A DNA stretch of 64,000 nucleotides from Candidatus Heimdallarchaeota archaeon (lineage in GTDB: Archaea > Asgardarchaeota > Heimdallarchaeia > Heimdallarchaeales > Heimdallarchaeaceae), in assembly GCA_021399395.1 (NCBI GenBank), contig JAAFKJ010000001.1, forward strand, positions 7,357-71,356, given 5' to 3'. Position 1 is the first letter of the stretch. Each line of letters starts with the position of its first letter. The notes below the pieces were generated by a model. That model made no database searches and was not told the DNA's origin. It was given only the letters and a program-made list of their open reading frames with translations. Below are positions 4,298-61,632 of this stretch, one piece after another. Both the position numbers and the translations under genes were made by a program.

Positions 4298-5335
4298 TTA
4301 TTTGAAAATAATATTTAATTGTGTTTCACATTTATTACAATTTCCAGTTAAAGAAATTCTTCTAAGTTCAGTCACAGTTGAAGATCTCTTAATCAACAAT
4401 TCATTACAATTTGGACAATAAGTGTTATTGGAATCATGATCTGGGACATTGTCTAAGTAAACAAAATGCAATCCTGCATCTTTTGCAGCTTTGAATGATT
4501 CTTCTAGAAGCACAATAGAAGTTGGAGATAGTTCTTTTAGTCTGTGTGCTGGAAGTAATCGGGCTAAATGCAAGGGAACTGAAGGTGACAATTCGGTTTT
4601 TATCCAGTCAGCTAATTTTCTAGCTTCTTCTACACCATTTCCTAGTTTCTCATGAATTACAAGATTGAGTTCCAAGAGCTTTTCTTTTTCATGAATAAGT
4701 TTAATAATTGATTTTATTTGCCCAAAATTTCCTCTCCGACAATTGCTTTCGTAGCCTTTGTCTGAAATTGATTTAATATCAATAGTTACCGCATCAACAT
4801 ATTCCAAAATTTCTTCAACGGGTTCTTTGTTAAAGTAACCATTTGTTCTAAGTAAAATTTTTAATCCTCTATCTTTTGCTAACTTAGCCGAATCTCTAAA
4901 CCATTCAAAAGAAATTAGTGGTTCTGCCTCTCCAAAACAGATAACCTTGGAACCTGAAGCCATTCCAAACATTGCTACTTGATCAGGAGCTAATTTCTTT
5001 CCCATGTATTTTTCAGGATCTGAAAATGCCTTATCCGGCATTGTACAATAGTCACAATCCAAGTTACAATTGTATGTTGAAAATGTTTGTGCTCTAGAAT
5101 TAGGTAGAAAATGATAAACATGCTGTTTTTCAATCATGTCTATTTTCATATCTGTTGCTCCGTAAGTGAGAGAATACAGTTTACCATCAATGTTTTTTCG
5201 TGCTAAACATTTACCTGTTTCCTCCCTTAGAAGTGTACACTCAATTGGACACAGTTTACATTGAATAACTTGGTTGTCTTCATCAAGAATTTCATAATAA
5301 TCTGCTTCGTGCAAAGTTTGAGACATCGGCTTCAT
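4298..5335 (-). CDS. radical SAM protein, divergent AmmeMemoRadiSam (AmrS)/PFL-activase-like
   Basis: CX3CX2C cluster YNCNLDCDYC, N-terminal auxiliary Cys motif QCKLCPIECT...GKC, C-terminal CPNC...CNKC ribbon. Collinear with the paralog at 20620..21645, but the usual CQNW after the cluster reads CTMP. Confidence 0.75.
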   Translation of the reverse strand: MKPMSQTLHEADYYEILDEDNQVIQCKLCPIECTLLREETGKCLARKNIDGKLYSLTYGATDMKIDMIEKQHVYHFLPNSRAQTFSTYNCNLDCDYCTMPDKAFSDPEKYMGKKLAPDQVAMFGMASGSKVICFGEAEPLISFEWFRDSAKLAKDRGLKILLRTNGYFNKEPVEEILEYVDAVTIDIKSISDKGYESNCRRGNFGQIKSIIKLIHEKEKLLELNLVIHEKLGNGVEEARKLADWIKTELSPSVPLHLARLLPAHRLKELSPTSIVLLEESFKAAKDAGLHFVYLDNVPDHDSNNTYCPNCNELLIKRSSTVTELRRISLTGNCNKCETQLNIIFK

Positions 5336-5503: not shown

Positions 5504-6649
5504 ATGTGGTCTCTTCTTCGTAAAGATGTCATGACAGTTTGGCAACAAGTTGAATTGAAGGAAAGGTTAGTTCGATATAGAGAGATTTTCCAAGGAAAGC
5601 GTATTCCAAGGTATAAGCTTGCCAGATTATTTTTTGTTCCATTTGACGAATATAAAGATAGGGGGGAATTATTGGACATTCATGAGCATTATCACACAAA
5701 ATTCAAAGCATGGTTAGAAGAGAAGCAATCCTTACCATTGGAAAAAGTGGAACAGGAAGTCTATACTAAGCATACAGAGACCGAGATAGTAAACAACAAT
5801 TATTTGAAACTAAAATCAATAATTCTAAATGACATTTTATCCTCGTGCGAGTTCTGTGAAACAAGGTGCAAAACTAATCGTTCTGAAGGTAAAGTTGGAA
5901 AATGTGGAGTAGATGGAGAAGCGTATGTCAGTTCATCGTTTATTCACATGGGGGAAGAAAGTCCAATTATACCTAGTGGAACAATTTTCTTCTATGGATG
6001 TACAATTGACTGTCAATTTTGTCAAAATTGGGATATAAGCCATGAATTTGATCTACAAAGGTTTAAAGGACGAGGAACATCTTCTGTTGAATTAGCTAGT
6101 ATGTTTTATTCTCTTGTAAAACAAAATGCAAGAAATATCAACTTTGTAGGTGGAGAACCAACACCAAACCTTCATGTGATTTTTGAAGCTCTTCTCATTA
6201 CACAAGTAGATGTACCAATGTTGTGGAATAGTAATATGTACTTAACCGAGACAAGTATGAAACTAATCTCGGACATATTTGATATTTGGTTACCTGATAT
6301 GAAATATAGTAACAATGAATGTGCTTCAAAATATTCCAAAGCACCAGTATATTGGGATGCTTTGAAACGAAATATGAAGATGATAGAGCAAAGAGGAAGT
6401 GGAGAATATGTTATACGTCATCTTGTAATGCCAAGCCATACAAAGTGTTGTTCACTACCTATTTTGGACTGGGTTAATGAGAATTTGAAAACACCATTAA
6501 TCAATATCATGGCACAATATCATCCAGACTACAAAGTACTTCAAACAGATAGATTTCCAGAGATTGGAAGAAGAGTATCTACAGGTGAAATGCATGAAGT
6601 TAGAAGTTATGCAGATAAACTTGGTCTCTACTGGAAAAGTGTGTCTTAA
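5504..6649 (+). CDS. radical SAM protein, PflX-like putative activating enzyme
   Basis: GCTIDCQFCQNWDISH (CX3CX2C followed by QNW), an upstream Cys-rich stretch CEFCETRCK...GKCG, and NFVGGEPTP. Confidence 0.75.
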   Translation: MWSLLRKDVMTVWQQVELKERLVRYREIFQGKRIPRYKLARLFFVPFDEYKDRGELLDIHEHYHTKFKAWLEEKQSLPLEKVEQEVYTKHTETEIVNNNYLKLKSIILNDILSSCEFCETRCKTNRSEGKVGKCGVDGEAYVSSSFIHMGEESPIIPSGTIFFYGCTIDCQFCQNWDISHEFDLQRFKGRGTSSVELASMFYSLVKQNARNINFVGGEPTPNLHVIFEALLITQVDVPMLWNSNMYLTETSMKLISDIFDIWLPDMKYSNNECASKYSKAPVYWDALKRNMKMIEQRGSGEYVIRHLVMPSHTKCCSLPILDWVNENLKTPLINIMAQYHPDYKVLQTDRFPEIGRRVSTGEMHEVRSYADKLGLYWKSVS

Positions 6650-6659
6650 GAGCAATATA

Positions 6660-7148
6660 TTATTGGATACTCATTTCCCAGAGTAATCTTTTGGTAGTAT
6701 TTCTTTCCCACTTATTTAATGCGCTTCGTGCTGCTATAGTTTCTGATAAGAATTTATGTTGGAAATCAGATATAAAATCAATCAGTTTCTCAATTTCTGA
6801 CACTTTTTCAAGTAAAGCTTGGGAGATATAGAATGTAATAGAAAATCCTGGTTCAGGTTCTTTTTGTACAATCCCTGTAGATTCATACAAAGCTAGACTC
6901 AATCTTCTTAATAGCATATCATCAAATGGGTCTCTTAATTCTAGAATTAAGGAAATTAAGCTAGAGTTTCGTGTTTTTTCAATGAACCCATTCTTTAGAG
7001 GAAACTGCTTTAGATCCATTTCTCTACATTCTTTACAGATCACACATGGATAGTTTATCTCCCTATGAGGACAAACATAGCGTTGTAATCTTAGAGCCTC
7101 TCTAATTTTATCCTTATCTTCCAAAAATTCGGGTTGACCAGAACTCAT
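6660..7148 (-). CDS. hypothetical protein with CPH-x7-CVICKEC putative metal-binding motif
   Basis: 162-aa ORF filling the spacer. Only the Cys/His motif was recognised. Confidence 0.45.
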   Translation of the reverse strand: MSSGQPEFLEDKDKIREALRLQRYVCPHREINYPCVICKECREMDLKQFPLKNGFIEKTRNSSLISLILELRDPFDDMLLRRLSLALYESTGIVQKEPEPGFSITFYISQALLEKVSEIEKLIDFISDFQHKFLSETIAARSALNKWERNTTKRLLWEMSIQ

Positions 7149-7220: not shown

Positions 7221-7667
7221 CTAAATCTCAAAAACATCACTGTTTTCAAAATAAGTTGAATTTGCTTGTTTCTTCTCAACAAAAGCTGGCATAATTGACG
7301 AGATTGTCTCTTTGAGTTTCCAATAATACTTGTAGCTCTCTACTGGTTTCTTCCTAAAAAGTGCTACTGAATCTTTTGAATTCATTACTGTTTCATTAAG
7401 TAATGTTATTGCTTTGGGAAGGGAGCTAGTGCCTTTAAGATTATCCAGATAGATTTTTTGCCACCTTTCTTTTCCATCTTCTTTTTCCAATACCACTTTA
7501 AATTTGATGGCTATCATTTCTAATTCAGCTCTCAGATCCCAGATGAGATTTTCAATCCCATTCATAGGTGTTTTTGCTGTCTTTGAGATGATTTTCTCCA
7601 GGTTTTTGTTTATTGCCTGAATATTTCTCAAGAGATCTTCTTTAGTGAGTACTGAATTTTCTTGCAT
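7221..7667 (-). CDS. hypothetical protein (148 aa, helical-looking)
   Basis: ORF with no competing frame and no motif recognised. Confidence 0.45.
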   Translation of the reverse strand: MQENSVLTKEDLLRNIQAINKNLEKIISKTAKTPMNGIENLIWDLRAELEMIAIKFKVVLEKEDGKERWQKIYLDNLKGTSSLPKAITLLNETVMNSKDSVALFRKKPVESYKYYWKLKETISSIMPAFVEKKQANSTYFENSDVFEI

Positions 7668-7706
7668 CTTGTGTAGGGAAACTTAAGTTCTTTAAAAAAA
7701 TGGTGT

Positions 7707-8939
7707 TTGGAAACAAAGTTTAAAATAAAGAATTTTTTATCTCTCCTAATGTCCTTTAGGAACAGTTTCGGATTAGATTTTCATTTTTCTGAGAATGAAA
7801 TTTATCTAGATTCTGCTACTTCAGGTAAGTTACCAGTTACTTCTCTTGAAACCATGAATCGCTATTATACAGATTTGGGCGGTGGACTTAACAGAGGTAC
7901 TCACAAAAAAGCATTGAATGCCAATAGAATTTTAGAAAGATCTCGCTCCACTATCGCACATATCTTCTCAATAGAACCTTCTAATCTTTCTTTTCTCCCT
8001 TCAAGAGAAACAGCAATAACAAATTTCCTTTCATCGGGAATATTTTCAAGTGAAGATGAAGTTATTGTTAGCTCATTAGATGACCACTCAGTTATTGCAC
8101 CACTGCTCAAGATAAAATCATTATATAAGACTAACTTAAATTTCGTATCTTTAAAGGAAGAAAGTAATCTGGCTGAATCAATAAAAAATAAGATATCAAA
8201 CAAAACTAAAGCAATTGTTTTATCTTCCCTGACATTAGGAATGGGTATTAGTAGGGATTGGAGAGAATTAGCTAAGATAGCTCAAGATGCTGAAATACTA
8301 TTCTTACTTGACATAAGTAACGAAGTTGGTCATAAGAATTTTAATTTCAAAGAAATTATGCCCGATATGGTTATTTCTTCAGGCAATATTGGCGCACTAG
8401 GACCTCAAGGAACCGCTTTTCAAATCTTAAAAGAAGATATGATCAAAAAATTCGATCCCATACTTGTTGGTGGTGGATCTGTTATATCGCTTACTAAGGA
8501 CAATTTCAGACTATCTTCTACTATTTCAAAATATGAACCGGGAACTTTGAATATCGCTGGAATTTCTGCTTTAGCGAACAGTTTACATTCATTATCTGAG
8601 ATAGGGTTTGAGACCATTTCAGAACATGAGAAAAATCTTAGAAGGTTTCTTGTTAATGGATTATCAGAAACAAGTAAAATTGATATCATCGAACATCCAA
8701 AATTAAATTATGGTCCGATTCTTTCCTTTAAGAGCGAAGAAATAGATGCTCATGATATAGCAATTATTTTAGAAGATTTAGGAAATATCTATTTGAGAAG
8801 TGGGGCACTCTGTTCTCACTTATTTATGGAAGAAGTAAAACAAGAATCACTTGTTCAAGTTTCAACTCATCTTTATAATACTAAAGAGGATATTGAAATA
8901 TTCTTAGAAACTCTAAACTCAATAATGACAGAGATTTAA
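7707..8939 (+). CDS. class V aminotransferase-fold, SufS/CsdA-like cysteine desulfurase homolog apparently lacking the PLP lysine
   Basis: Aligns by eye along the whole length to SufS: IYLDSATSG, VGGGSVI, YEPGTLNIAG, RSGALCSHLF (active-site Cys loop), STHLYNTKEDIE. SGHK is replaced by SGNIG (8379..8393). TTG start. Confidence 0.75.
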   Translation: METKFKIKNFLSLLMSFRNSFGLDFHFSENEIYLDSATSGKLPVTSLETMNRYYTDLGGGLNRGTHKKALNANRILERSRSTIAHIFSIEPSNLSFLPSRETAITNFLSSGIFSSEDEVIVSSLDDHSVIAPLLKIKSLYKTNLNFVSLKEESNLAESIKNKISNKTKAIVLSSLTLGMGISRDWRELAKIAQDAEILFLLDISNEVGHKNFNFKEIMPDMVISSGNIGALGPQGTAFQILKEDMIKKFDPILVGGGSVISLTKDNFRLSSTISKYEPGTLNIAGISALANSLHSLSEIGFETISEHEKNLRRFLVNGLSETSKIDIIEHPKLNYGPILSFKSEEIDAHDIAIILEDLGNIYLRSGALCSHLFMEEVKQESLVQVSTHLYNTKEDIEIFLETLNSIMTEI

Positions 8940-9116
8940 AATAATCGGTCACCTAAGCTTCTTTCTGACATCGCTTTACGCTTTACCAAATGCCTTCCGA
9001 TCATTCCGATATATGTCAGTTACCAATTATATATACAAAAGTTTCTATGGATGAAAGTATTTATTTTTTGAACTAGTAAAATTTTAATACAGAATAGAGA
9101 ATAGAAAAAAGAAACT

Positions 9117-10313
9117 ATGTCATCAAATACTCATTTCGGGATTGATTTCAACATTAAACCAGGCCAAATTTATCTGGATTCAGCAACAATAGGCAAAATG
9201 CCCATTTCTTCAATAGAAACTATAACTAATTTCTATTCGAATGGAGGAGGTGTTCCAGTTAGAGGGATGTATAATGAAATATCTCAAGCGAATAATATCC
9301 TAGAATCTAATCGTAGAGAACTGGCTAGTATGTTCCAAATAGATCCCATACAGATATCATTTTTCTCTTCTAGAGAAGTTGTTTTGACAAATACATTATA
9401 TTCTCTTCCAGATCTAAAGGATAGGAGAATCGTTTCTAGCATTCTTGAAGAACATTCAGTCATAGCCCCAGCAATAAGAGTAAACAATGATGTAGGAACA
9501 AAAATTGAATACTTAAATCTAGATGATGAAATCGATATTCTTGATAGTATTAATGAAAAAATCAATTCAAAAGAAGATATACTTCTGCTATCATCTCTAA
9601 CTGCAACTAATGGAGTAAAAAGGAATTGGTCAGAAATCACCAAAATATGTCAAGATAATGGTGCAACCTTTATTCTGGATATGAGCTATTCAGTAGGACA
9701 TGAAGAAATACTCTTAAAGGACAATATGCCTGACATAGTCTTTTCATCAGGATGTATTGGTGCGCTAGGACCCCCTGGAACAGCTTTTCAAATAACTACT
9801 AATGAGATATATCCAGATATGGACCCCTTAATTGTTGGGGGAGGTTCCATAATCACTTTAGAAGAAGAATATTATCTTTTGAATTCTGCTGGATCAAAAT
9901 TTGAGACTGGATTGCTAAATATTGCCAACATATCTTCGATGACGAATAGTCTGAAGCTCTTATCTGAGGTGGGCTTCACAAAAATCCAGCAGCATGAAGA
10001 AACACTAATTTCTCACTTGCATAAAGGTCTAAAGGACATAGAAGGTATTGAAGTTAATGAACTCGAGAATGCTGAATATGGGTCTATTGTTTCATTTGGT
10101 AGCGAGCTAATTGAAGCACATGATTTTGCTCTTGTTCTCGAAGATTTGAAAAACATCCAAGTTCGAAGTGGTGCCCTTTGTTCTCATCTGTTCATGTATG
10201 AATTGAAATATTCTGATATAGTAAGGATATCGACACATCTCTATAATACTAAAGAAGAAATAACGATATTATTAGAAACAATATCTTCTCTACTCAAACA
10301 GATGCAAATTTAA
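9117..10313 (+). CDS. second SufS/CsdA-like paralog, also apparently lacking the PLP lysine
   Basis: IYLDSATIG, VGGGSII, FETGLLNIAN, RSGALCSHLF, STHLYNTKEEI. The SGHK position reads SGCIG (9747..9761). Confidence 0.75.
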   Translation: MSSNTHFGIDFNIKPGQIYLDSATIGKMPISSIETITNFYSNGGGVPVRGMYNEISQANNILESNRRELASMFQIDPIQISFFSSREVVLTNTLYSLPDLKDRRIVSSILEEHSVIAPAIRVNNDVGTKIEYLNLDDEIDILDSINEKINSKEDILLLSSLTATNGVKRNWSEITKICQDNGATFILDMSYSVGHEEILLKDNMPDIVFSSGCIGALGPPGTAFQITTNEIYPDMDPLIVGGGSIITLEEEYYLLNSAGSKFETGLLNIANISSMTNSLKLLSEVGFTKIQQHEETLISHLHKGLKDIEGIEVNELENAEYGSIVSFGSELIEAHDFALVLEDLKNIQVRSGALCSHLFMYELKYSDIVRISTHLYNTKEEITILLETISSLLKQMQI

Positions 10314-10547: not shown

Positions 10548-10772
10548 GTGGCAAGGTGTCCCGATTGCGGTGGTGAAGTCAAATACAAAGCTCCTTTCAT
10601 GGTCTGTTTGGATTGTGGTTTATCCATGAAAAGATGGGATTTTGACGAACAAAGTAAGAAAATCAAAGCAGAATTTAAAAAAGAAATGGGAGAATCAGAA
10701 GAAGAATCTGATCGAAAAGAAAGACAAAAGAAACGTGATTATCATGATTGGATCATGAAAAAGGAGGATTAA
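10548..10772 (+). CDS. small zinc-ribbon protein with a charged C-terminal tail
   Basis: CPDCGG-x13-CLDCG. GTG start 5 nt after AGGTGAT. Confidence 0.55.
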   Translation: MARCPDCGGEVKYKAPFMVCLDCGLSMKRWDFDEQSKKIKAEFKKEMGESEEESDRKERQKKRDYHDWIMKKED

Positions 10773-10776
10773 GGGA

Positions 10777-11034
10777 TTGACATTAATCGCTCAACACTTA
10801 AAATGTGATTTCAGAGATAGATGTGCGTCATGCAGTAAATATCTGTGGCCACCTAAACAAAAAGGAAGATACTTCTACTGCCCAGACTGCAAGTCAGACA
10901 TTCTCTGTGATCGAGGTCTGATACAAAATTTTACTACTGACAAAGATGGAATCATTCAGAAAAAGAATCTCTGCATGAAATGTAATAATGAAGTAGTAGA
11001 AAGAATGTGGCCAGAAGACGCTTTTGAAATATGA
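10777..11034 (+). CDS. small Cys-rich (zinc-finger-like) protein
   Basis: CASC...CPDC...CMKC pairs. TTG start about 10 nt after AAGGAGGA. Confidence 0.45.
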   Translation: MTLIAQHLKCDFRDRCASCSKYLWPPKQKGRYFYCPDCKSDILCDRGLIQNFTTDKDGIIQKKNLCMKCNNEVVERMWPEDAFEI

Positions 11035-11046
11035 AAAAATAAAATC

Positions 11047-12432
11047 CTATTGGATTATAACATATAATCCAGGATCATCCATGATGTAAATTATTTCATC
11101 AGGTTTTTCAGACATGTAATTTGTTATTTCTCTTCTGAGTGCATCAACTGGTGATTCTTCTGGTTTTTTAATGGGATTAACTCTGTAGTAATCACGTAAT
11201 TGATCAGCATCCCAGTCTGCAATCATTTTTAGGTTACCTTCTCCGATTAATTTGACTATCCTCATAGTATCAACTGGTTTTTGGTTTCCAATTTTGAAGG
11301 TTTCAGTTGTACAGTAATTGTCTAAGATATATTCTAAGCCTTCTTGAAGTGGCATTTCACCTGTTTCTTTCATGACTTGTTCATAATTAGCATTACCGAC
11401 ACCATCTGGAAGAGGTGCTACAGCTATAATTATTCCTGTACCATCTTGCTTTACTGCATTCCAAGCTGCATGTATGCCTTTCCCTGCTTGGTATAGGTTG
11501 ATACCCCAGCTTTGCATTCCACTAACAACAATACCTCCTGCTTTTGGAAGTTTGACTGTTCTCATTTTTACAATGAGATTTTTAGCTTCATCGTGAAGTT
11601 CTACTAGATCTCCAGCATTGAGGTAAACTATTTTACCTTCAGTTACAATTGTATCAATTCCGAAAATTGGTACTTTAGTTTTTAAGATATTTACCATGTT
11701 CTTAATATCTGAAATCACAGGATTATCTTCTGTACTACCTAACCTGCATCCTGGAACAAAACCTAGTTTTCTATCAAACATTCTAGGATGATTTTGTCTA
11801 ACAGTATCTCTGCCTGCTATTCCAGGGCATATTTCTTTTATAGTCCCAGCAACTCCTGCAAAATAGTGCAATTCACTATCTGTTATGGGAACTATGATAG
11901 ATGCTTCAAAAACCAATTTATCAAAAGTCATAGGTGTTCCAGCATCACTAATTCCAATATTAACTCCTTCATCATCACAATCATGTGATACTATATTTGC
12001 TCTATAGTTTTCATAAACAAATTCGCCAACCATCTTTGTTGGATATTCTTCTTCTTTTGGCTCACGATGGGTTCCTGTTGCAATTAAAACCCTAAAATCT
12101 TCTTTTGCTACACCAAGAGAAAGGATTTTTTCTATCATTAAAGGTAATATGATTTTTGTATGAATGTTAGGTCTAGTATAGTCATCAACTGCAAAAACGA
12201 TCGGTTTTCCTTTTTGATACTTTTGCTTTACTAGTTCTTCAAAAGAAATATCATAACCAATTGGATTTTCTAATTTCTTCATTAAAGCTTCCTTTACAGT
12301 TCCTTCAAACATTGGCTTCTTCGAAAACTCAGGAGGATGTAAGAATTTAGTCTGATCCATATATCTGGAGGGAACAAAATTATTTATTGTTTCTGCACCC
12401 CAAGATATTGGTGTGTCTAGATATTCTGTCAT
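11047..12432 (-). CDS. LarA-like (DUF2088) nickel-pincer-cofactor-dependent racemase/epimerase family protein
   Basis: VDDYTRP, ATGTHR, LHYFAGVAGTIKEICPG and RQNH motifs, matching the LarA family as I recall it. Confidence 0.75.
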   Translation of the reverse strand: MTEYLDTPISWGAETINNFVPSRYMDQTKFLHPPEFSKKPMFEGTVKEALMKKLENPIGYDISFEELVKQKYQKGKPIVFAVDDYTRPNIHTKIILPLMIEKILSLGVAKEDFRVLIATGTHREPKEEEYPTKMVGEFVYENYRANIVSHDCDDEGVNIGISDAGTPMTFDKLVFEASIIVPITDSELHYFAGVAGTIKEICPGIAGRDTVRQNHPRMFDRKLGFVPGCRLGSTEDNPVISDIKNMVNILKTKVPIFGIDTIVTEGKIVYLNAGDLVELHDEAKNLIVKMRTVKLPKAGGIVVSGMQSWGINLYQAGKGIHAAWNAVKQDGTGIIIAVAPLPDGVGNANYEQVMKETGEMPLQEGLEYILDNYCTTETFKIGNQKPVDTMRIVKLIGEGNLKMIADWDADQLRDYYRVNPIKKPEESPVDALRREITNYMSEKPDEIIYIMDDPGLYVIIQ

Positions 12433-20619: not shown

Positions 20620-21645
20620 GTGATTTATTTGACATTGTATGAAGCAGAATACTATGAAAGACGAGAGGGAAAAGATGTTCAATGTTTATTATGTCCAAGA
20701 AAATGTATCATTAAATCTGAGGATTTAAGTGACTGCAAAGCTAGAAAGAACATAGACGGTAAACTCTATGCTCTTGGATATAATCGGTTTACATCTGTCC
20801 ATGCTGATCCAATTGAAAAAAAACCTGTCTATCATTTTAAACCAGGAACTAATTCCATGAGTTTTGGTGCAGCAGGTTGTAATCTTCATTGTGCTCATTG
20901 TCAAAATTGGAGTATCAGTCAGATTTCTGCTGAGAGTAATAATCTCATAACTGTAACCCCCCAAAATGCAATGGATATCATTCGCAAAAACAACTGTGAT
21001 ACTATCGCTTACACATATAATGAACCACTCATTAACTTTGAATGGATAAAAGATACAGGAAAACTTGCTCATCAAAATGGCTATGCCAATATTCTGGTCT
21101 CCAATGGTTTGATAAATGCTAAACCGTTGCAAGAATTGTTACCTATTATTGACGCAGCAAATATTGACATCAAAGCTTTTACAGAAGATTTCTATAAAGA
21201 TGTAACTGGTTTTCCAGGATTAAAACATATTAAGAAAAATGTAGTCACGATGCTGCAAGAAGGTATTCACATTGAACTTACAATGTTATTAATCCCTACA
21301 CTCAATGACAGCCCAGAAGAGATAGAAGCTTTTGCAAACTGGGTAAAAGAAACATTGAACTCCAAAGTACCTATACACTTCAGTAGGTTCTACCCTCATT
21401 ATAAGATGCAACATCTTCCCCCAACCCCCGTAGAAACAGTTTTGAATGCAAAGAAAATTGCTGAGAAAGTGGGTTTGAGATATGTTTATACAGGAAATTT
21501 ACCTTATTCTGAGATAAATACAACTACATGTCAGAACTGTGGATCTACATTAGTTGAACGTGTTAATTATACTGTGAAAATAATTGAATTAGGGATAGAT
21601 GGTAATTGTAGAAAATGTGGAGAACCATCTGATTTTCATCTTTAA
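20620..21645 (+). CDS. AmmeMemoRadiSam-system radical SAM enzyme (AmrS)-like
   Basis: QCLLCPRKC...DCKARKN, GCNLHCAHCQNWSIS, C-terminal CQNC...CRKC. GTG start; nearby TTG alternatives are possible. Confidence 0.85.
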   Translation: MIYLTLYEAEYYERREGKDVQCLLCPRKCIIKSEDLSDCKARKNIDGKLYALGYNRFTSVHADPIEKKPVYHFKPGTNSMSFGAAGCNLHCAHCQNWSISQISAESNNLITVTPQNAMDIIRKNNCDTIAYTYNEPLINFEWIKDTGKLAHQNGYANILVSNGLINAKPLQELLPIIDAANIDIKAFTEDFYKDVTGFPGLKHIKKNVVTMLQEGIHIELTMLLIPTLNDSPEEIEAFANWVKETLNSKVPIHFSRFYPHYKMQHLPPTPVETVLNAKKIAEKVGLRYVYTGNLPYSEINTTTCQNCGSTLVERVNYTVKIIELGIDGNCRKCGEPSDFHL

Positions 21646-21710
21646 ATCCTTCTAGTTTGAATATTGTGCTACAATTATCCTTATATGTTTATAGAAAAAC
21701 GAAGGAGCGT

Positions 21711-23108
21711 ATGTTAGACACCTTAGAGGAAATAATAAATGGTGTATCTCTATCGAACAAAGATTTTCTAGATATACGCTATGCATATGCTATGGGAGAA
21801 TCTTTTACTGTTCGAAATGGACGTTTTGATAGTATCAGCAATCAAACTACTGGAGGGATAGCTATTAGAGCTTTAATAGATAATGCTTGGGGTTTCACCA
21901 CAATAGTCGATACTGATAAAGAATCAATTCTCAAGGCAATTAAGAAAGCAATAAAGATGGCTAAAGCTGGATCTAAATACACCAAGCAAGAAAGAACAAT
22001 CAGCGATAATTGGGTATTTGAAGGAAGTGGAACAACTAAACTTGAAATAGATCCGAGAGAGATAGATAAAGAGACAAAATTCAATAAAATAATTCAAACA
22101 GAAAAGACTGCTAGGGAATACTCAGATACAATTGCCGAAGCTTCTTCAACCTATCAAGAATCTCATGGTAAAGAATTTATTGTAAACAATAAAGGAACAA
22201 AAGTTAGCAATGAAGAACATGTTATTCGGTTGATGAAAAATATTGTAGGGAGACAGGGGACAAAAATGCAAAGTGTTTTTGACTCTATTGGAGGTGCCGG
22301 TGGTTGGGAATTAGTTGAAAAATGGGATCCTGAAAAGGAAGGATTGAAAGCTGCAGTTCTAGTTGAAAAATTATTACTGGCTAGAGAGCCTCCATCAGGA
22401 AAAATGAATGTAATCATGGATCCCTCACTAACCGGAGTTTTCATCCATGAAGCATTTGGGCATGCTTGTGAGGCTGATGGAATTATCGCTAAAAATTCTA
22501 TTCTGGAAGGGAAGATAAACAAACGTGTTGGTGTTGAAGGAATTAACGTTTATGATGATCCTACCATTCCCCAATTGCGAGGTTCATTCGAGTATGACTC
22601 CGAAGGAACAAAAGCTCGTAAGAGGGTTTTGGTAGAAGATGGAATTCTAAAAGAATATTTCCATACTCTAGAAACTGCAACAGCATTAGGAATGGAACCA
22701 AATGGTGCTGGGAGGGCTATGAATTTTAATGTTACACCTCAAGCTCGTATGGGGAATACATATGTTGCTAGTGGTGACATGAAACTTGAAGAAATAGCAG
22801 AAAAGGTAAAAGATGGAGTATATCTCAAAGACTCATATGGGGGGTATGTTGTACCTGCTAAAGGTCAATTTTACTTCACATGCCAACTAGGCTATTTTAT
22901 CGAAAATGGTGAGATAACTGACATGATGGGTAATGTCGGGATGTCAGGTATGACTCTAGAAGTATTGCAAAACACTTTCGCAATTGGTGAGAAGTGGGAA
23001 CCAGCTTTTGAGGGAACGTGTGGCAAAGGTGGACAATGGGTTCCAGTAATTGGTGGAGGTCCAAATCTAGGGGTTTCAGATTTAGTTGTTGGAGGAACAG
23101 AACAATGA
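21711..23108 (+). CDS. tldD: TldD-family metalloprotease
   Basis: HEAFGHACEADG (HExxxH), C-terminal GGGPNLGVSDLVVGG. ATG 21711 is preceded by GAAGGAG. Confidence 0.9.
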   Translation: MLDTLEEIINGVSLSNKDFLDIRYAYAMGESFTVRNGRFDSISNQTTGGIAIRALIDNAWGFTTIVDTDKESILKAIKKAIKMAKAGSKYTKQERTISDNWVFEGSGTTKLEIDPREIDKETKFNKIIQTEKTAREYSDTIAEASSTYQESHGKEFIVNNKGTKVSNEEHVIRLMKNIVGRQGTKMQSVFDSIGGAGGWELVEKWDPEKEGLKAAVLVEKLLLAREPPSGKMNVIMDPSLTGVFIHEAFGHACEADGIIAKNSILEGKINKRVGVEGINVYDDPTIPQLRGSFEYDSEGTKARKRVLVEDGILKEYFHTLETATALGMEPNGAGRAMNFNVTPQARMGNTYVASGDMKLEEIAEKVKDGVYLKDSYGGYVVPAKGQFYFTCQLGYFIENGEITDMMGNVGMSGMTLEVLQNTFAIGEKWEPAFEGTCGKGGQWVPVIGGGPNLGVSDLVVGGTEQ

Positions 23109-24454
23109 CATCAAAAGAAGATTTACATGAACTAGCAGAATTCATCATAAAACAAGGGTTGAAACTAGGAGCAGATCAAGTAGAAGCTTATACATTATAT
23201 GGTTCAGCTAAGAGCGTTCAAGTTGAAAGAGGCTCAATTAGAAAGTTTACCGACATTAGCAACTCTGGTTTAGGAATCCGCATCATTAAGGACAAATCTA
23301 TAGGTATGGCTTCAACAACAATTTTTACCAAAGATAGCATAGAAAATTGCGTTAATAATGCATATGCTTTAGCTAAAGTAAGTCCGCCTGATCCAAATTT
23401 TGATTCTTTACCTGTAGATGAAACACCTACACCAGAGATACAGGACAGATATGATCAATCTGTTATCGATTTAGATGTTGAAGAATTTACTGAAATTATC
23501 TTACAATCCATTCAAGAAGCACAAAAGTATGAAAAAGCTATAATTGGAGGGAACTTCACAGCTGGTTATGGTGAAAGGTTTATCGTTAATTCACAAGGTA
23601 TTGATCGAACATCTTCTCAAACATCCGTCAGTGGATATCTGAGCGTTAAGCTAGAAGAAGGAGAAGATATCGGTAATGCGTATTATTATGATGCTTCAAC
23701 AGTTCTTTCTAAGTTTAAGTATGAGCAAATTGGAAAAGTAGCTGGGGAAAGAGCTAAAAACATGTTAGGATCTAAGAAAATAGAAACTACATCTTTGCCA
23801 ATTCTACTTGACCCCGACAGCACATATGGAACAATCGAACCTATCCTTTCGAACGGTATTAATGCTTTTAGCGTGTTTAACAGAACTGCATTCTTTGTTG
23901 ACAAAATTGGAGATGCAATAGCAAATGAGAAATTGAACATCACAGATGATCCTTTCTATCCAGGTGGGACAGATTCAGCCCCCTTTGATGATGAGGGTGT
24001 TGTTCCCAAAAAACTGAAATTGGTTGAAAATGGAATACTGCAGACCTATATCACTGACTCATATTCTGCGCCATTAGTTGGTTTAGAAAATACCGGTCAT
24101 GCTTCAAGAGGTTCATTCGCTTCTAGACCTAGACCAGCGCCTTATACACTCAGTATCGAACCTGGAACCATTTCTAAAGATAATCTAATAGCTGATATGA
24201 AAGAAGGAATCTTAATGATTGGTTCACCTCTCCATTCAAGAGGTAATAATCCTCAAATCTCAGCACAAATCAATCAAGGTTTTCTTGTTAAGGATGGAGA
24301 GATACAATACCCAATTAAAAATGCTGTAATTGGTTGTACTGTTTTCGATGTTTATCAAAAAATAGATAAACTAAGTAAAGAAATAGAAAACCGTAATGGC
24401 CATAAAGCACCTTGGATGTTATTAAAAGCATTACAAGTAAGTGGAGGCAAGTAA
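23105..24454 (+). CDS. pmbA: PmbA/TldE-family protein, partner of TldD
   Basis: Homologous TldD/PmbA fold without HExxxH. ATG 23105 overlaps the tldD stop (ATGA), so the track's upstream extension is rejected. Confidence 0.88.
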   Translation: MTSKEDLHELAEFIIKQGLKLGADQVEAYTLYGSAKSVQVERGSIRKFTDISNSGLGIRIIKDKSIGMASTTIFTKDSIENCVNNAYALAKVSPPDPNFDSLPVDETPTPEIQDRYDQSVIDLDVEEFTEIILQSIQEAQKYEKAIIGGNFTAGYGERFIVNSQGIDRTSSQTSVSGYLSVKLEEGEDIGNAYYYDASTVLSKFKYEQIGKVAGERAKNMLGSKKIETTSLPILLDPDSTYGTIEPILSNGINAFSVFNRTAFFVDKIGDAIANEKLNITDDPFYPGGTDSAPFDDEGVVPKKLKLVENGILQTYITDSYSAPLVGLENTGHASRGSFASRPRPAPYTLSIEPGTISKDNLIADMKEGILMIGSPLHSRGNNPQISAQINQGFLVKDGEIQYPIKNAVIGCTVFDVYQKIDKLSKEIENRNGHKAPWMLLKALQVSGGK

Positions 24455-49360: not shown

Positions 49361-49831
49361 ATGAATGAAGATAAGAATAAATTGATTGTAAGAAAAATAG
49401 AGAATGGAACAGTGATTGACAGAATTCCTCCAGGTAAAGCTTTGCGCATACTCGAGGTTTTAGGAATAGATGCAAATTACCCATATACAGTTGCACTCGC
49501 TATACGTGTTCTTTCCAAAAAAATGTCTCTTAAAGATGTAGTAAAAATCAAAGGTAAGGAATTAACAGAAAATGAAGTTCATAAGCTCTCATTTATTGCT
49601 CCAGGAGCATCTGTAAATATCATTCAGAATTTCGAGGTTCAGAGAAAAATACAGTTAGAAATTCCTGACCATGTTGAAGAATTTATCAAGTGTCTTAATC
49701 CAAATTGTGTTTCTAATTCCCATGAACCCATAACCTCATCATTTGATATAATTTCTAAAAAACCTTTGATTCTTAGATGTATCTACTGTGATAGAGTTAT
49801 GGAGGACAAATATCTAAGTGGAAAACTATAG
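49361..49831 (+). CDS. pyrI: aspartate carbamoyltransferase regulatory subunit
   Basis: LIVRKIENGTVIDRIP, C-terminal zinc domain CLNPNC...CIYC. Starts 1 nt after pyrB. Confidence 0.9.
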   Translation: MNEDKNKLIVRKIENGTVIDRIPPGKALRILEVLGIDANYPYTVALAIRVLSKKMSLKDVVKIKGKELTENEVHKLSFIAPGASVNIIQNFEVQRKIQLEIPDHVEEFIKCLNPNCVSNSHEPITSSFDIISKKPLILRCIYCDRVMEDKYLSGKL

Positions 49832-51079
49832 GTAGGTACCAATGTCTTTTCTGTAGAAAAGATTCCCTTTTATTTGTGTAATCTTCCTATCATTTTCAAT
49901 TTTAGCAGATTCCAGGTCATCTCCCTTTGTTACAAGAGCTATAGCTCTACTGGATGTTGTTCTGATGGTGCTTTTATCTCGATAAACTGAAGCATAAAAA
50001 ATATCCTTATTTATGGCTGGATCAACCTCCACCGGTTCCTCTTTTACAGGATTTTGTGGATATCCTTGAGGAACTAGATAAGTACATACGGTAGCTTGTT
50101 TCTGAAACTCTGCTTTTGATAAATTCCCGTCTATTATTTGAGAAGCAATTTGCAGGAAATCAGTTTGTAATAATTTTAGAACATTTAGTGCTTCTGGGTC
50201 ACCAAATCTTACATTATATTCAATTAAAAATATACTATCTTCCGTTTTCATAAATTGTCCATACAGAATCCCTTTGAATTTTTCACCTGTGTTCTGATTT
50301 AATGCTTTCAGGGTTTTCTTTATTATATTCAGCGCATCCTTGTAATCCTTCTTTGAAAGGAATGGTAAATTGTGATCAGGAAGACTATATGATCCCATGC
50401 TTCCAGTCAAGGGTCCTTCCTCATTCTCGTATGCTCTTTTATAATCTCTTACCAAAGGCATAGGTAGAATGTTTGAACCATCTGTAAAAACCTGTAAGGA
50501 GAATTCTTTACCCTTCTTCTTCTCTTCAATCAAGTATTCACCTTCGCGGTTAATTAAGGTTTTAACGTACTTTGTTGCTTCATGAATATTTGTTAAATGA
50601 TCACCATAAACTTTTACACCCTTACCCCCAGTTAATCCATCGGGTTTGATGACAAAATCAGTTCCAAATTCATCTACAGCAACATCAAGATCCTCAACTG
50701 ATTTACCAATCATATAAGATACATTTCCAGGAACATTATAAATGTCCATCAAGTAACGAGTAAAAATCTTGCTACTTTCAATTTTTGCTACATTCTGTCG
50801 AGGACCACATGTTGGAATCCCTAGTTTATCTTCTAGATAATCAGTAATGCCATTTGCAAGAGGATTTTCAGGACCAATGATCGCAAAGTCTACATTTCTG
50901 TATTTCTTTAATTTCTCAAAATTATTTAGATCTCCAATACTAAATTTTTTTGATAAATCTGCAATACCAGGATTCTCTCTAGACATATATGAAAAAAGTT
51001 TGGCATCATTCTCTACAATCTTCATTGCAATGGAGTGTTCTCTTGCCCCATTTCCTACAAGTAATACTTTTAACCCCAT
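49826..51079 (-). CDS. purD: phosphoribosylamine-glycine ligase
   Basis: KVLLVGNGAREHSIA, ATP-grasp VIKPDGLTGGKGV, EYNVRFGDPE. Confidence 0.92.
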   Translation of the reverse strand: MGLKVLLVGNGAREHSIAMKIVENDAKLFSYMSRENPGIADLSKKFSIGDLNNFEKLKKYRNVDFAIIGPENPLANGITDYLEDKLGIPTCGPRQNVAKIESSKIFTRYLMDIYNVPGNVSYMIGKSVEDLDVAVDEFGTDFVIKPDGLTGGKGVKVYGDHLTNIHEATKYVKTLINREGEYLIEEKKKGKEFSLQVFTDGSNILPMPLVRDYKRAYENEEGPLTGSMGSYSLPDHNLPFLSKKDYKDALNIIKKTLKALNQNTGEKFKGILYGQFMKTEDSIFLIEYNVRFGDPEALNVLKLLQTDFLQIASQIIDGNLSKAEFQKQATVCTYLVPQGYPQNPVKEEPVEVDPAINKDIFYASVYRDKSTIRTTSSRAIALVTKGDDLESAKIENDRKITQIKGNLFYRKDIGTYL

Positions 51080-51081
51080 GT

Positions 51082-52479
51082 TTAGACCTCTTCATAGTGG
51101 CTTCTGCTTACTAATTCTCCATTCAAGTATCTTATCCGTATTTCTTGTGCATGTTCAGTAGGATAACTACCTGAAAGACATGCAGTACATAAGTCAGAAA
51201 ATCCGATAGATTTTTTCAAAGATTCAATGTTTTGATAGTATAATTCATCCACATCCAGAATTTGTTTCATTTCTTCAATTTTGTATCCGGAAGCGATCAG
51301 TTCATCATCAGTAGGAAAATCAATTCCATAATAACAGGCAAATCTAATAGCAGGACAAGTGACAGCTAGATAGATCTTTTTTGCACCTAGTTTTCTAAGG
51401 TCCTTAATGATTTTCTGGCTTGTTAATCCTCTTACAATGGAATCATCTACAACAAGGATATTTCTATCTTTAATGAAAGTTGGAGTGTAGAGATATTTTC
51501 TCTTAGCTACGCTTGTTCTCTCTTCCTTACTTTTCATAATGAAAGTTCTCTGAAGATATCTGTTTTTGATAATTGCTTCTCTAACCGGGATGTTGAGAAC
51601 CTCTGATAGACCTTGGCTTGCAGGTCTAGATGTATCTGGAACAGGTACAATGAAATCAATTTCAAGTTCAGATTTCTGAATTCTATGTCCTAACTCTCTA
51701 CCAAGTTCTAACCTTACATCATACACTAACCTCTGTTCAATATATGAACATGGATGTGCAAAATAAACAAACTCAAACATACAATGAGCATGATCACGTT
51801 GAACTATACTGGTATGTTTAACATCGTTTTTATTGATAAAAACTAATTCACCAGGTTTAACATCTTCGAATTTCTCTATTCCTAAATTTTGAAGAACGAC
51901 GCTTTCTGATGTAACTAGAGACACATTTTCAAACTTCCCCATTACTAGAGGTCTCAAACCTCTTGGATCTCTAAATGCAAACAATTGATCATTAAGAATA
52001 CCAATAATTGAATAACTTCCATCTATTGATTCCATAAATGCTCTTACTGCCGCTTCAATATCTCCTTTCATTTTATTAATTTGCATCCCTAAGAAATCAA
52101 CAACAAATCTAGCATCTGATTCGTATGATTGTTGTGTTAGAGAGGAGAGATTGGTAACATTTCCATTATGTACAATCGACAAGCTTCCAGATTCTGTTTC
52201 AAATGAGAATGGTTGTGCATATGTTTCTATATTGGAACTATCGGTTCTTGTACCAAAAGTAGGATATCGTGTTGCACCAAGTAGAGATCTAGTTTCTATT
52301 TTCTCATCTATTTCAAGTAAATCGGGATAACTATCTGATTTAGAAGTAATCAGACTAGCTGTGGATTCATCATACCAAGCTAAACCACTGGCATCCTGAC
52401 CTCTGTGTGTGAGCATCTGAAGCAGTATTCGGCCTTGTCCCAAGGTTGTTAATCCTTTGATTCCTAAAACTCCACACAT
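51082..52479 (-). CDS. purF: amidophosphoribosyltransferase
   Basis: N-terminal MCGVLGI (Ntn Cys), HRGQDASG, PRT loop ILVVDDSIVRGLTS. Confidence 0.93.
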   Translation of the reverse strand: MCGVLGIKGLTTLGQGRILLQMLTHRGQDASGLAWYDESTASLITSKSDSYPDLLEIDEKIETRSLLGATRYPTFGTRTDSSNIETYAQPFSFETESGSLSIVHNGNVTNLSSLTQQSYESDARFVVDFLGMQINKMKGDIEAAVRAFMESIDGSYSIIGILNDQLFAFRDPRGLRPLVMGKFENVSLVTSESVVLQNLGIEKFEDVKPGELVFINKNDVKHTSIVQRDHAHCMFEFVYFAHPCSYIEQRLVYDVRLELGRELGHRIQKSELEIDFIVPVPDTSRPASQGLSEVLNIPVREAIIKNRYLQRTFIMKSKEERTSVAKRKYLYTPTFIKDRNILVVDDSIVRGLTSQKIIKDLRKLGAKKIYLAVTCPAIRFACYYGIDFPTDDELIASGYKIEEMKQILDVDELYYQNIESLKKSIGFSDLCTACLSGSYPTEHAQEIRIRYLNGELVSRSHYEEV

Positions 52480-53085
52480 TTATTCCACTATCCTAGCTTT
52501 ATTACTATATACCTGTATTTTCCCTAAAGAGAAGAGTGAAATTGCTTTAGGTAGTAACACATGTTCTTCTCTCAAAATCCTATCAGCAAGTTCTTTCTCT
52601 GAATCCTCACTGTATACCTCAACACATTTCTGCAGAATAATGGGTCCTTCATCAACTGTTTCAGTTACAATATGAACAGTACAGCCTGAGATTTTCACAC
52701 CAAAGTCTAATGCTTGTTTTTGCGCTTTTAGCCCAGGAAAAGAAGGAAGTAGGGAGGGATGTATATTGATGATTTTGTTCTTATACTTAGATATAAAATT
52801 CGAGGATAAGATCTGCATGAATCCTGCGAGAACTATGAACTCAATTTTATTGTGTTCAAGTATTTCTAAAATTTCGCTCTCTTGTTCACAATAATCAAGA
52901 TTCTTTTTATCGACAATAGCTGTTTGTTTGTGACTTCTTTGAGCAATTTCTAATCCTTTTGCTTCAGGATTGTTTGATAGTACTAAAACAATTTTAGTTT
53001 TCCCCAAGCTCTTCTCTTCTTCTGCTTTCAGAATAGCTTCAAGGTTTGTTCCTCTTCCAGATATTAAAACAGCTGTTCTCATCAT
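52480..53085 (-). CDS. purN: phosphoribosylglycinamide formyltransferase
   Basis: AVLISGRGTNLEAIL, INIHPSLLP, GCTVHIVTETVDEGPII. Confidence 0.9.
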   Translation of the reverse strand: MMRTAVLISGRGTNLEAILKAEEEKSLGKTKIVLVLSNNPEAKGLEIAQRSHKQTAIVDKKNLDYCEQESEILEILEHNKIEFIVLAGFMQILSSNFISKYKNKIINIHPSLLPSFPGLKAQKQALDFGVKISGCTVHIVTETVDEGPIILQKCVEVYSEDSEKELADRILREEHVLLPKAISLFSLGKIQVYSNKARIVE

Positions 53086-53086
53086 C

Positions 53087-54121
53087 TCACCTCGTAAATA
53101 TCACATTATAGTCTTGAATTTTAACAATAGGATCCGTGATAATCTCACCGATTATTAGCGAATCAAAGTGTTTTGAAAGAGTTTCGAGAGCTTTTTGAGC
53201 ATTATTTTTGGAAACAATGACAACGAAGCCTATACCCATGTTGAATATGGAGAACATTTCTTGGTAGTCTATATTCCCTACAGATTGAATCTCATGAAAT
53301 ATTTGTGGGATGTTGCACCATTTGTCGATTTGAAAACCAAGATTTGTTATTCGAAATAGTTTCTTAAAACCTCCACCTGTGATATGAGCAAGTCCATTTA
53401 TTTCGCAATTTTCTGATAAGTCTTTAATTGCTTCAGTGTATATTCTTGTAGGAATTAGCAATTCCTCTCCTACATTTGTTCCCCATGGAAAACTTTCATT
53501 GTATTCATATTTAATAGATAAAACTTTTCGAAGTATAGTAAAACCATTAGAATGAATCCCACTACTTGTTATCCCTATGATTACATCTCCAACTTTTATT
53601 TTAGAACCATCTACAATTTCTTTGATATCAACTATTCCGAGTGCAGTACCAGCAAGATCAAAAGAATTGATGTTAGTTGATAGAAGCTCTGGTATTTTCG
53701 CCAGCTCACCTCCTATCAGAGGTATTTTTGCCAGCTCACAACCTTTCAAAATTCCTTGCATGATACCATCTATAACATCTTCTTGAAAGTCTGAAACTGC
53801 TAGATAATCAACAAAAGCACTTGGTTGAATTCCCATTGCTAGAAGATCATTAACATTCATTGCAACACAATCTATACCCACAGTATCAAACTTTCCAGTT
53901 TTTTGGGCTATAAGCAGTTTAGTTCCAACTCCATCAGTTGCTAAGGCCAGTCCATAATCTCCAAATTTAATCAGATTAGCATAATGACCTTCTTTAGATA
54001 CAACATTTCCAAGTTCAAAGCTACTTTTCACATACTTGTTGATATTCTTCAAAATCCTAGCTTCTTTAGATAAATCTATTCCAGCCTCAGCATAAGTATT
54101 AGGTATATTCTTTTCAGTCAT
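53087..54121 (-). CDS. purM: phosphoribosylformylglycinamidine cyclo-ligase (AIR synthetase)
   Basis: YAEAGIDL, LATDGVGTKL, GIDCVAMNVNDL, SSGIHSNGF, AHITGGG. Confidence 0.93.
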   Translation of the reverse strand: MTEKNIPNTYAEAGIDLSKEARILKNINKYVKSSFELGNVVSKEGHYANLIKFGDYGLALATDGVGTKLLIAQKTGKFDTVGIDCVAMNVNDLLAMGIQPSAFVDYLAVSDFQEDVIDGIMQGILKGCELAKIPLIGGELAKIPELLSTNINSFDLAGTALGIVDIKEIVDGSKIKVGDVIIGITSSGIHSNGFTILRKVLSIKYEYNESFPWGTNVGEELLIPTRIYTEAIKDLSENCEINGLAHITGGGFKKLFRITNLGFQIDKWCNIPQIFHEIQSVGNIDYQEMFSIFNMGIGFVVIVSKNNAQKALETLSKHFDSLIIGEIITDPIVKIQDYNVIFTR

Positions 54122-54140
54122 TGAATTCCATCTCCCATAA

Positions 54141-54539
54141 TTATCTTACATTATTGAAATTGATAAGCTTAAGAATTCGAATCGATAGATATGCAGCATT
54201 TTCTCCGTTATCAATCCCTACTGTTGCAACAGGTACCCCTTTAGGCATCTGAACCATGGACAATAGTGCATCCATCCCATTCAATGCTGCCGACACTGGA
54301 ACCCCTATTACTGGTTTTTTTGTCAAAGATGCTACAACTCCAGGTAGAGCTGCTGCTAAACCAGCTATGCAAACGAAAATATGTGCTTTAGAATTTTCTA
54401 CTTTAACTACTAATTTATCGTGATCTCTATGAGCAGAAATATAGCTCACTTTGAAATCGATTGAGTGTTTTTCCAAAACACTTGTAACTTTTTTAACTAT
54501 TTTTTCATCACTTTTGCTTCCCGCAATTATTTCTATCAT
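54141..54539 (-). CDS. purE: phosphoribosylaminoimidazole carboxylase catalytic subunit / N5-CAIR mutase family (short, 132 aa)
   Basis: [31 protein letters not shown]. No purK in the window. Confidence 0.88.
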
Positions 54540-54540
54540 A

Positions 54541-60492: not shown

Positions 60493-60526
60493 GAGTACTA
60501 ATAATCGTAAAAAGAAAATGAAGAAT

Positions 60527-60576
60527 ATTCAACATTCAAAGGATTACACTGAAGAATTCTTCGAATGATGTTGAAT
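60527..60576. repeat. nested inverted repeat between the two purP paralogs
   Basis: Outer arms ATTCAACAT (60527..60535) and ATGTTGAAT (60568..60576). They enclose the perfect 12-bp palindrome GAAGAATTCTTC (60551..60562). Confidence 0.6.
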
Positions 60577-60616
60577 GTTAGACTAAAGAAATAAAAACAG
60601 TTTCAAAAACTACGAT

Positions 60617-61621: not shown

Positions 61622-61632
61622 AAGGTGATGAA

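Follow-up and report, generated by a model that had tools for sequence, protein, structure and literature searches.

The 64,000-nucleotide stretch of DNA analyzed here (hereafter the window; G+C content about 34%) is part of contig JAAFKJ010000001.1 from a Candidatus Heimdallarchaeota archaeon, a member of the Asgard archaea, and carries two tandem genes for proteins derived from the cysteine desulfurase SufS that are without the lysine binding pyridoxal phosphate (PLP). The first, paralog A (7749..8939, +), codes for a protein of 396 residues identical to the database protein P0001, and the second, paralog B (9117..10313, +), for one of 398 residues identical to P0072; the two open reading frames (ORFs) encode products that are 46.5% identical to each other. 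The open frame of A spans 7707..8939 (+) with an in-frame TTG at 7707, where an earlier note on this DNA, made from the sequence alone, had let the gene begin; because P0001 and all orthologs are 396 residues long, the true start is almost certainly the ATG at 7749. Such proteins are currently annotated as 'aminotransferase class V-fold PLP-dependent enzyme' by NCBI and as 'cysteine desulfurase/selenocysteine lyase' by JGI.

Both proteins match the Pfam class V aminotransferase profile PF00266 over its entire length (positions 1-371 of 371; E-value = 3.8e-61 for A and 1.5e-58 for B) and are predicted with high confidence by AlphaFold2 to adopt the fold type I architecture of this class (predicted local distance difference test, pLDDT, 94.4 and predicted template modeling score, pTM, 0.93 for A; pLDDT 92.7 and pTM 0.92 for B). 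In Foldseek comparisons the model of A aligns with the SufS structures of Thermococcus onnurineus, Escherichia coli, Bacillus subtilis and a plant at TM-scores of approximately 0.9. The best matches are type II SufS enzymes partnered by SufU, namely those of B. subtilis (PDB: 5xt5, 5j8q) and T. onnurineus (PDB: 5b7s), with an E-value of 2.5e-46 and TM-scores of 0.88-0.91. The earlier observation that A and B are collinear with group II cysteine desulfurases is confirmed.

To establish which residue occupies the place of the Schiff-base lysine (K226; residues are numbered as in E. coli SufS unless positions of A or B are given) we used phmmer alignments with the SufS structures 5b7s, 8d8s, 1t3i and 5j8q, MAFFT alignments of 116, 152 and 122 sequences, and, with E. 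coli SufS added, an alignment made by L-INS-i. These independent alignments agree in placing Ile214 of both A and B in the K226 column, as the earlier note had read it. In the phmmer alignments the S-G-N-I-G of A (8379..8393, +) and the S-G-C-I-G of B (9747..9761, +) lie under the canonical S-G-H-K(G), so that H225 and K226 are replaced respectively by N213 and I214 in A and by C213 and I214 in B, this cysteine being present in seven of the nine B-type representatives. Hence, neither paralog has the Schiff-base lysine of the type II SufS/CsdA enzymes (EC 2.8.1.7). Across the clade of lysine-less homologs delineated below, no member has a lysine in this column, and all canonical sequences compared do. 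The lysine of the GHKNF motif of A, which the earlier note had named as the residue that might overturn its claim, aligns with E. coli H208 and is a lysine in just one of nine A-type and one of nine B-type sequences, and the alignment of A- and B-type sequences contains no other conserved lysine column near the pocket that could substitute. The score of A against the sufS model TIGR01979 (cut-off 475.1 bits) is 205.0 bits and that of B 186.9 bits, the IscS models give 45-57 bits, and no NCBIfam model reaches its cut-off for either protein.

Examination of the remaining cofactor site revealed that the loss extends well beyond the lysine. Among the PLP-contacting and acid-base residues T95, H123, N175, D200, Q203, S223, H225 and T278, both paralogs keep D200 and S223, and A additionally keeps T278, which is leucine in B. 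The D-G-A-Q contact had been noted to read differently in the two copies; its aspartate is in fact kept as D188 and the three following residues are changed, giving D-I-S-N in A (8310..8321, +; Q203 replaced by N191) and D-M-S-Y in B (9678..9689, +; Q203 replaced by Y191). The canonically invariant T95, which we take to contact the PLP phosphate, is replaced in both by a glutamate, E87 (8007..8009 in A and 9375..9377 in B, both +), N99 by a threonine, and H362-H363 by Ala-Leu. The H123-H124 dyad becomes D112-H113 in A (8082..8087, +) and E112-H113 in B (9450..9455, +), while N175 is a leucine in A and an alanine in B. R379 is replaced by glutamine in the Q370-x-S372-x-H374 segment of A (8856..8870, +) and is kept as an arginine at position 370 in its counterpart in B (10224..10238, +); H374 is a clade-specific histidine at the position of A383. 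Overlapping this segment is the STHLYNT motif (8862..8882 in A and 10230..10250 in B), and translation confirms exactly the coordinates previously given for this motif, for SGNIG, SGCIG, DISN and DMSY, and for the RSGALCSHLF loop considered below. The Heimdallarchaeal proteins present three acidic residues (E87, D/E112 and D188) at the former PLP site. Outside the Heimdallarchaeal A and B groups the clade shows an apparent swap in which Q203 is replaced by arginine and R379 by glutamine (e.g. in 12 of 12 Thor-type sequences), and the B-type Heimdallarchaeal proteins have reverted position 379 to arginine.

The loss of the lysine is by itself no proof that the cofactor was lost, because the lysine-less IscS of Archaeoglobus fulgidus binds and crystallizes with pyridoxamine phosphate (PMP; PMC8918507). 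A and B might likewise bind a B6 vitamer (PLP or PMP) without a covalent link, for structural use or a modified reaction, and the retention of D200 and S223 speaks in favor of such binding. However, the positions T95, H123, N175, Q203 and H225, and in B also T278, all of which are invariant in 30 canonical SufS sequences, are replaced, and the glutamate at T95 is expected to repel the PLP phosphate by its negative charge. We consider this explanation quite improbable; since the ring- and phosphate-contacting positions are replaced along with the lysine, A and B are unlikely to retain any B6 cofactor. For the same reason, the change of Thr95 to Glu included, non-covalent retention of a cofactor ranks as the weakest of the functional options that the earlier note had listed.

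The other half of the active site presents a different picture. Both paralogs contain the short type II catalytic loop R-x-G-x-x-C with the persulfide-forming cysteine, in the form R-S-G-A-L-C-S-H-L-F (8796..8825, +, in A and 10164..10193, +, in B), in which R350 corresponds to R359 and C355 (8811..8813 in A and 10179..10181 in B) to C364. R56 (R49 in the paralogs), H124, D200, S223, R359, G361 and C364 are all kept in both A and B. Across 58 sequences of the lysine-less clade C364 and G361 are invariant (58/58 each) and R359 is missing from a single sequence (57/58), while R56 is an arginine in 43 and an arginine or lysine in 48 of them. Further, H335 of both paralogs (in A part of the H335-D336 dyad, 8751..8756, +; in B at 10119..10124) aligns with His342 of B. 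subtilis SufS, which has been reported to ligate the Zn of SufU when the two proteins form a complex, and to be specific to the SufU-partnered SufS enzymes (PMC8918507). This column is a histidine in 52 of the 58 lysine-less sequences, whereas E. coli SufS has a tyrosine. Mutagenesis of E. coli SufS has assigned K226 (which abstracts the alpha-proton) and H123 (which deprotonates C364) to the desulfurase half-reaction, and has shown that R56 and R359 matter mostly when the persulfide is passed to the acceptor (PMC11507941). Judged by the alignment, the clade has lost the carbon-sulfur (C-S) lyase residues K226 and H123 and kept the persulfide-transfer residues R56, R359 and C364. The simplest reading of this pattern is a half-enzyme, which would lack C-S lyase chemistry and would have kept a persulfide-carrying or ligand cysteine together with a docking surface for U-type proteins.

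The same columns bear on an alternative in which the pocket was remodeled into a new active site or a metal- or cluster-binding site, with A and B being a neofunctionalized enzyme or metal-binding protein; candidate residues for such a site would be D/E112, E87, D188, H113, C355, H357, H374 and, in B, C213. The clade has indeed gained histidines two residues after the catalytic cysteine (H357, in 81%) and at the A383 position (H374, in 93%), the B-type proteins have a cysteine in place of H225, and the three acidic residues of the Heimdallarchaeal proteins sit where PLP once did. Nevertheless, with the exception of D188 these pocket residues are not conserved clade-wide and the genomic context hints at no substrate, and we regard such a new activity as distinctly unlikely.

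To determine how far the lysine-less condition extends we combined several searches. In the immediate Heimdallarchaeal family the lysine is absent from 93 of 93 full-length members, which split into A-type and B-type subfamilies usually encoded on one contig. When one genome was scanned for each GTDB species, the family was recovered solely in Heimdallarchaeota, at approximately 32 loci, some of which lie in the closed genomes of Ca. Heimdallarchaeum endolithica and Ca. H. aukensis, and the remaining matches were without exception canonical bacterial SufS proteins; the closed Ca. Heimdallarchaeum genomes appear to carry a single copy. About 25 more lysine-less representatives came to light when 1.84 billion cluster representatives were searched exhaustively with a profile and the matches aligned, and a profile built from these additions recovered 54 further lysine-less proteins, the named members of which come from Helarchaeota, Thorarchaeota, Sifarchaeia and Promethearchaeota. 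A preceding profile search had also found one lysine-less representative from Ranarchaeia (placed by NCBI in the Asgard kingdom Promethearchaeati). At the His-Lys position these further proteins have N-I as their consensus, just like paralog A. A neighbor-joining tree of 94 sequences unites all 58 lysine-less proteins in a single clade within type II SufS (bootstrap 87/100); the Heimdallarchaeal A and B groups arise inside this clade, and every canonical outgroup sequence keeps the lysine. As the lysine-less proteins constitute one Asgard-wide monophyletic clade, the loss of the lysine long predates the tandem duplication; the tree thus indicates that the cofactor site was lost once, in an ancient event shared across the Asgard archaea, well before A and B separated. 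Literature searches found no earlier description of this clade. The closest canonical matches, P0101-P0104, were considered as possible Asgard housekeeping SufS proteins and set aside, as they originate from Halobacteriota and are found in Nif-like contexts, and are therefore uninformative on Asgard SufS.

We also considered whether A and B could be decaying pseudogenes or products of faulty assembly or sequencing. Intact full-length ORFs of the lysine-less family occur in more than 170 independent assemblies, two closed genomes among them, and the ratio of nonsynonymous to synonymous substitution rates (dN/dS) between closely related Heimdallarchaeal genomes, computed from one alignment per gene, is well below 1 for both genes (0.08-0.22 for A and 0.11-0.28 for B). 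These values resemble those of the neighboring radical S-adenosylmethionine (SAM) gene rSAM1, which lie mostly at 0.13-0.25 apart from a single outlier pair (0.70), and they somewhat exceed those of Lon, rSAM2 and the ARPC4-like gene (0.02-0.15). Purifying selection acts on both paralogs. Together with the confident fold predictions, the intact frames and dN/dS values refute the reading as decay or artifact, in favor of which we found nothing and whose probability we consider practically nil; the lysine loss, being conserved in every homolog of the family, is genuine, as had been argued before from the presence of two diverged copies. Because the loss is family-wide, selection is purifying and the SufS fold is confidently predicted, the further contention that it reflects a conserved non-canonical function also holds, and A and B are very probably functional, non-canonical proteins with a role other than that of PLP-lysine desulfurases.

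The type I lineage already offers examples of lysine-less desulfurase paralogs, and the Asgard clade is a large and ancient type II case. One of the former, A. fulgidus IscS (AF0564; PDB: 4hvk, 4eb5), described as an 'inactive cysteine desulfurase paralog', has an aspartate in place of the lysine and no desulfurase activity, and its cysteine ligates a [2Fe-2S] cluster on IscU; it is proposed to be a scaffold for which sulfide supplies the sulfur (PMC7585200; PMC8918507). Like A and B, it is an archaeal protein from an anaerobe that has replaced the Schiff-base lysine and kept the loop cysteine. It differs in belonging to the type I lineage and being encoded beside IscU, whereas the Asgard clade is type II with no adjacent IscU, and in that a single Lys to Asp change leaves the rest of its cofactor site intact, while in the Asgard clade most of the site is dismantled. 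Also unlike A. fulgidus IscS, the Asgard clade spans a superphylum and is duplicated in Heimdallarchaeia. The IscS1 of Methanosarcina acetivorans is likewise reported to be without the catalytically essential lysine and has been suggested to act like its A. fulgidus counterpart (PMC7585200). It is an uncharacterized type I protein encoded with IscU1, related to the Asgard clade only at the level of the superfamily. The SufU-partnered type II enzymes share with A and B the R-x-G-x-x-C loop, R56, R359 and the His342-type SufU-docking residue, and differ in being PLP-dependent desulfurases that keep K226, H123, N175, Q203, H225, T95 and T278. The SufE- and CsdE-partnered SufS and CsdA of E. coli have the fold and loop in common with A and B; E. 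coli SufS differs in the tyrosine at the His342 position, its dependence on PLP and its location in the sufABCDSE operon.

To obtain contextual information we then examined the gene neighborhoods of the lysine-less proteins in Heimdall-, Thor-, Sif-, Ran- and other Asgard lineages. The usual order in Heimdallarchaeales is Lon, a gene for a 106-residue protein, two radical SAM genes (- and +), an ARPC4-like gene (-), a gene for an orphan protein of 148 residues that we call p148 (-), A (+) and B (+), followed by two small zinc-ribbon genes, a LarA-like gene (-) and a major facilitator superfamily transporter. In more distant Heimdallarchaeal genomes p148 and the ARPC4-like gene alone still adjoin the SufS-like gene. 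p148 (7221..7667, -) is divergently oriented with respect to A, contains no cysteine, and is a conserved neighbor of the lysine-less SufS-like gene. Its family comprises 21 clusters, with conserved tryptophans and an LWKLKETISS motif, and is always divergent from the SufS-like gene, even in the case of the deep-branching member P0139, upstream of which a homolog of 145 residues (L092 9475..9909, -) was detected with BLASTP (E-value = 7e-4, over nearly the full length). Reciprocal phmmer searches of 672 Heimdallarchaeal ORFs recovered p148 orthologs as the sole matches (best E-value = 2.9e-7), none of 1,994 shuffles reached the score of the real profile, and of the 21 p148 clusters known, no fewer than 11 lie on contigs that match, by size, those bearing a lysine-less SufS-like gene. 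Profile searches with p148 found no match in Pfam or PDB, and its identification as an ISD11/LYRM-like or other known protein was rejected, since no Pfam family recurs across 13 members at E-values up to 10.

The ARPC4-like gene downstream of p148 (6660..7148, -) codes for a protein of 162 residues that matches PF05856 (E-value = 1.9e-7; 31.3 bits, above the gathering score). ARPC4 is the 20-kDa subunit of the ARP2/3 complex, and the product would be a eukaryotic signature protein; the gene is strongly conserved (dN/dS 0.02-0.15) and syntenic with the p148/SufS-like genes throughout Heimdallarchaeales, in the closed Ca. Heimdallarchaeum genomes too. A 335-residue protein encoded upstream in the Thor and Sif contexts was considered as a candidate fusion in which p148 and the ARPC4-like protein would be joined, and rejected, as it is similar to neither and gives just a weak match to NTP_transf_2.

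The 81-bp divergent intergenic region (7668..7748) contains an A/T-rich TATA-like sequence, TTTAAAATA, at 7719, about 25 bp before the ATG of A, which is a putative promoter element of that gene. The 177-bp spacer between A and B (8940..9116) contains the TATA-like sequences TATATATA at 9028 and TTTTAATA at 9082, which suggests that B has its own promoter; with a TATA-like element for each gene, co-transcription is not required. A scan for sigma-70 promoters and intrinsic terminators gave fewer matches than shuffled sequences, these models not being applicable to archaea. In one locus (L001) a 5.5-kb insertion (L001/L005 11309..16700; GCA_030603365.1, JAUVXV010000002.1) parts the A and B orthologs and leaves both genes intact; it bears a gene for a 735-residue TnpB/Cas12f1-like protein and several small ORFs.

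Among the other genes of the window, the two divergent radical SAM genes just upstream (4298..5335, -, the product of which ends in a zinc-ribbon-like tail at its C-terminus, and 5504..6649, +) are syntenic in most Heimdallarchaeales; radical SAM proteins are iron-sulfur (Fe-S) clients. Downstream of B lie the genes for zinc-ribbon proteins of 74 (10548..10772, +) and 85 residues (10777..11034, +) and a LarA-like protein (11047..12432, -; Lar_N, E-value = 4.6e-38), and these are syntenic in nearly all Heimdallarchaeal loci. Acidic-hydrophobic C-terminal tails are conserved in p148 (at 7221, -; [DE][IV]FEI in 12 of 13), the 85-residue zinc-ribbon protein (at 11034; WP[ED][DE]x[LF]E[IL]) and A (at 8936; SIMxEI in about 16 of 27), and may constitute a shared tail-recognition motif; B has no conserved tail. 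Farther away are a segment with, in this order, a radical SAM gene, two TldD/PmbA-family genes and a cation-efflux gene (20620..24454, +), which resembles peptide-maturation cassettes, and a purine biosynthesis cluster (49826..56718, -, and 59410..63141, +) coding for GARS, amidophosphoribosyltransferase-like, AIR synthase, FGAM synthase, DUF1246/DUF1297 (PurP-like) and GMP synthase proteins.

Drawing on the above observations and on the analogy with A. fulgidus IscS, we propose that A and B could be functional proteins that derive from a type II cysteine desulfurase with a SufU partner, dispense with PLP and act as a sulfur relay or as a scaffold providing a cysteine ligand, a tentative proposal to which we give slightly less than an even chance. 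Having lost the Schiff-base lysine, His123 as the general base and most of the contacts with the cofactor, they would no longer be able to cleave cysteine. Instead, C355 would carry a persulfide, the source of which would be sulfide or polysulfide or else a distinct canonical desulfurase; alternatively, it would ligate a nascent Fe-S cluster. R49 (R56) and R350 (R359) would promote transpersulfuration, and H335 would dock Zn-bearing SufU-type acceptors, with the persulfide or cluster being handed to a U-type or other acceptor. The active unit would be a dimer, which may be an A:B heterodimer in the present lineage and would be a homodimer where there is a single copy. NFS1- and ISCU-type proteins have been reported as Asgard-associated (PMC12872458), and sulfur donors and acceptors therefore plausibly exist. 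Among the options listed in the earlier note, the best fit is given by that of a PLP-independent sulfur relay or persulfide carrier, because R56, R359 and C364 are kept while K226 and H123 are gone. The Asgard-wide clade, the published type I precedent, the conserved SufU-docking histidine and the p148 neighbor are all additions to what that note had described.

Several observations weigh against this proposal. No gene for SufU, IscU, SufE, SufBCD, rhodanese or TusA occurs within about 10 kb of the lysine-less gene in any of the contexts examined (at least 12 independent ones, from Heimdall-, Thor-, Sif-, Ran- and other lineages) or elsewhere in the 64-kb window, so that A and B are not encoded with SufBCD and SufE or SufU in the manner of a canonical SufS. 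The sole recurring neighbor, p148, has neither a cysteine nor a recognizable domain. R56 is not universal in the clade, the kept Cys, Arg and His residues could serve a different chemistry, and, by analogy with the PMP of A. fulgidus IscS, a bound B6 vitamer is conceivable. As for the heterodimer, A and B appear to have separate promoters.

Some of these points would suit a structural or regulatory pseudoenzyme with no role in sulfur metabolism, in which the SufS fold is a binding platform for p148, and perhaps for the ARPC4-like protein, and the cysteine loop is purely structural. The lack of cysteine in p148, the synteny of the ARPC4-like gene across Heimdallarchaeales and the want of any Fe-S or sulfur gene nearby in the contexts examined are in keeping with such a platform, as is the variation of former-pocket residues by sublineage (the Q203 position is Arg in Thor-type and Asn, Tyr or His in Heimdallarchaeal sequences), which is as might be expected of a filled pocket. 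Yet Cys364 and Gly361 are invariant and Arg359 nearly so in a clade whose members are otherwise 25-35% identical, the His342 equivalent and R56 are kept too, these being precisely the persulfide-transfer residues, and p148 and the ARPC4-like gene are missing from the Thor, Sif and Ran contexts. Hence, we rate the pseudoenzyme as an unlikely explanation, though one deserving of consideration.

A more elaborate possibility, to which we assign a small chance, is that the lysine-less dimer and p148 form a new Asgard sulfur- or metal-handling module with the pocket rebuilt into a metal, Fe-S or catalytic site. The rebuilt site would comprise C355, H357, H374, D188, D/E112 and, in B, C213, and p148, small and helical, would serve as an accessory subunit of an obligate kind, a functional analog of ISD11 on eukaryotic NFS1. 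If this were true, A and B would be no degenerate relay but a distinct machine of the archaeal lineage closest to eukaryotes.

Metabolic reconstructions have credited Asgard archaea with cysteine desulfurases (e.g. 10.1101/385732), and the counts in such reconstructions may include proteins unable to desulfurate cysteine. The present family extends the phenomenon of lysine-less desulfurases from isolated type I cases in A. fulgidus and M. acetivorans to a large type II clade, and offers a natural separation-of-function variant of SufS, in which the C-S lyase half is removed and the persulfide-transfer residues are kept. It also provides a test case for persulfide handling and for the building of Fe-S clusters from environmental sulfide in anaerobic archaea. 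Finally, it is conserved in the archaeal superphylum closest to eukaryotes, the Fe-S machinery of which (NFS1, ISCU) is being debated in connection with eukaryogenesis (PMC12872458).

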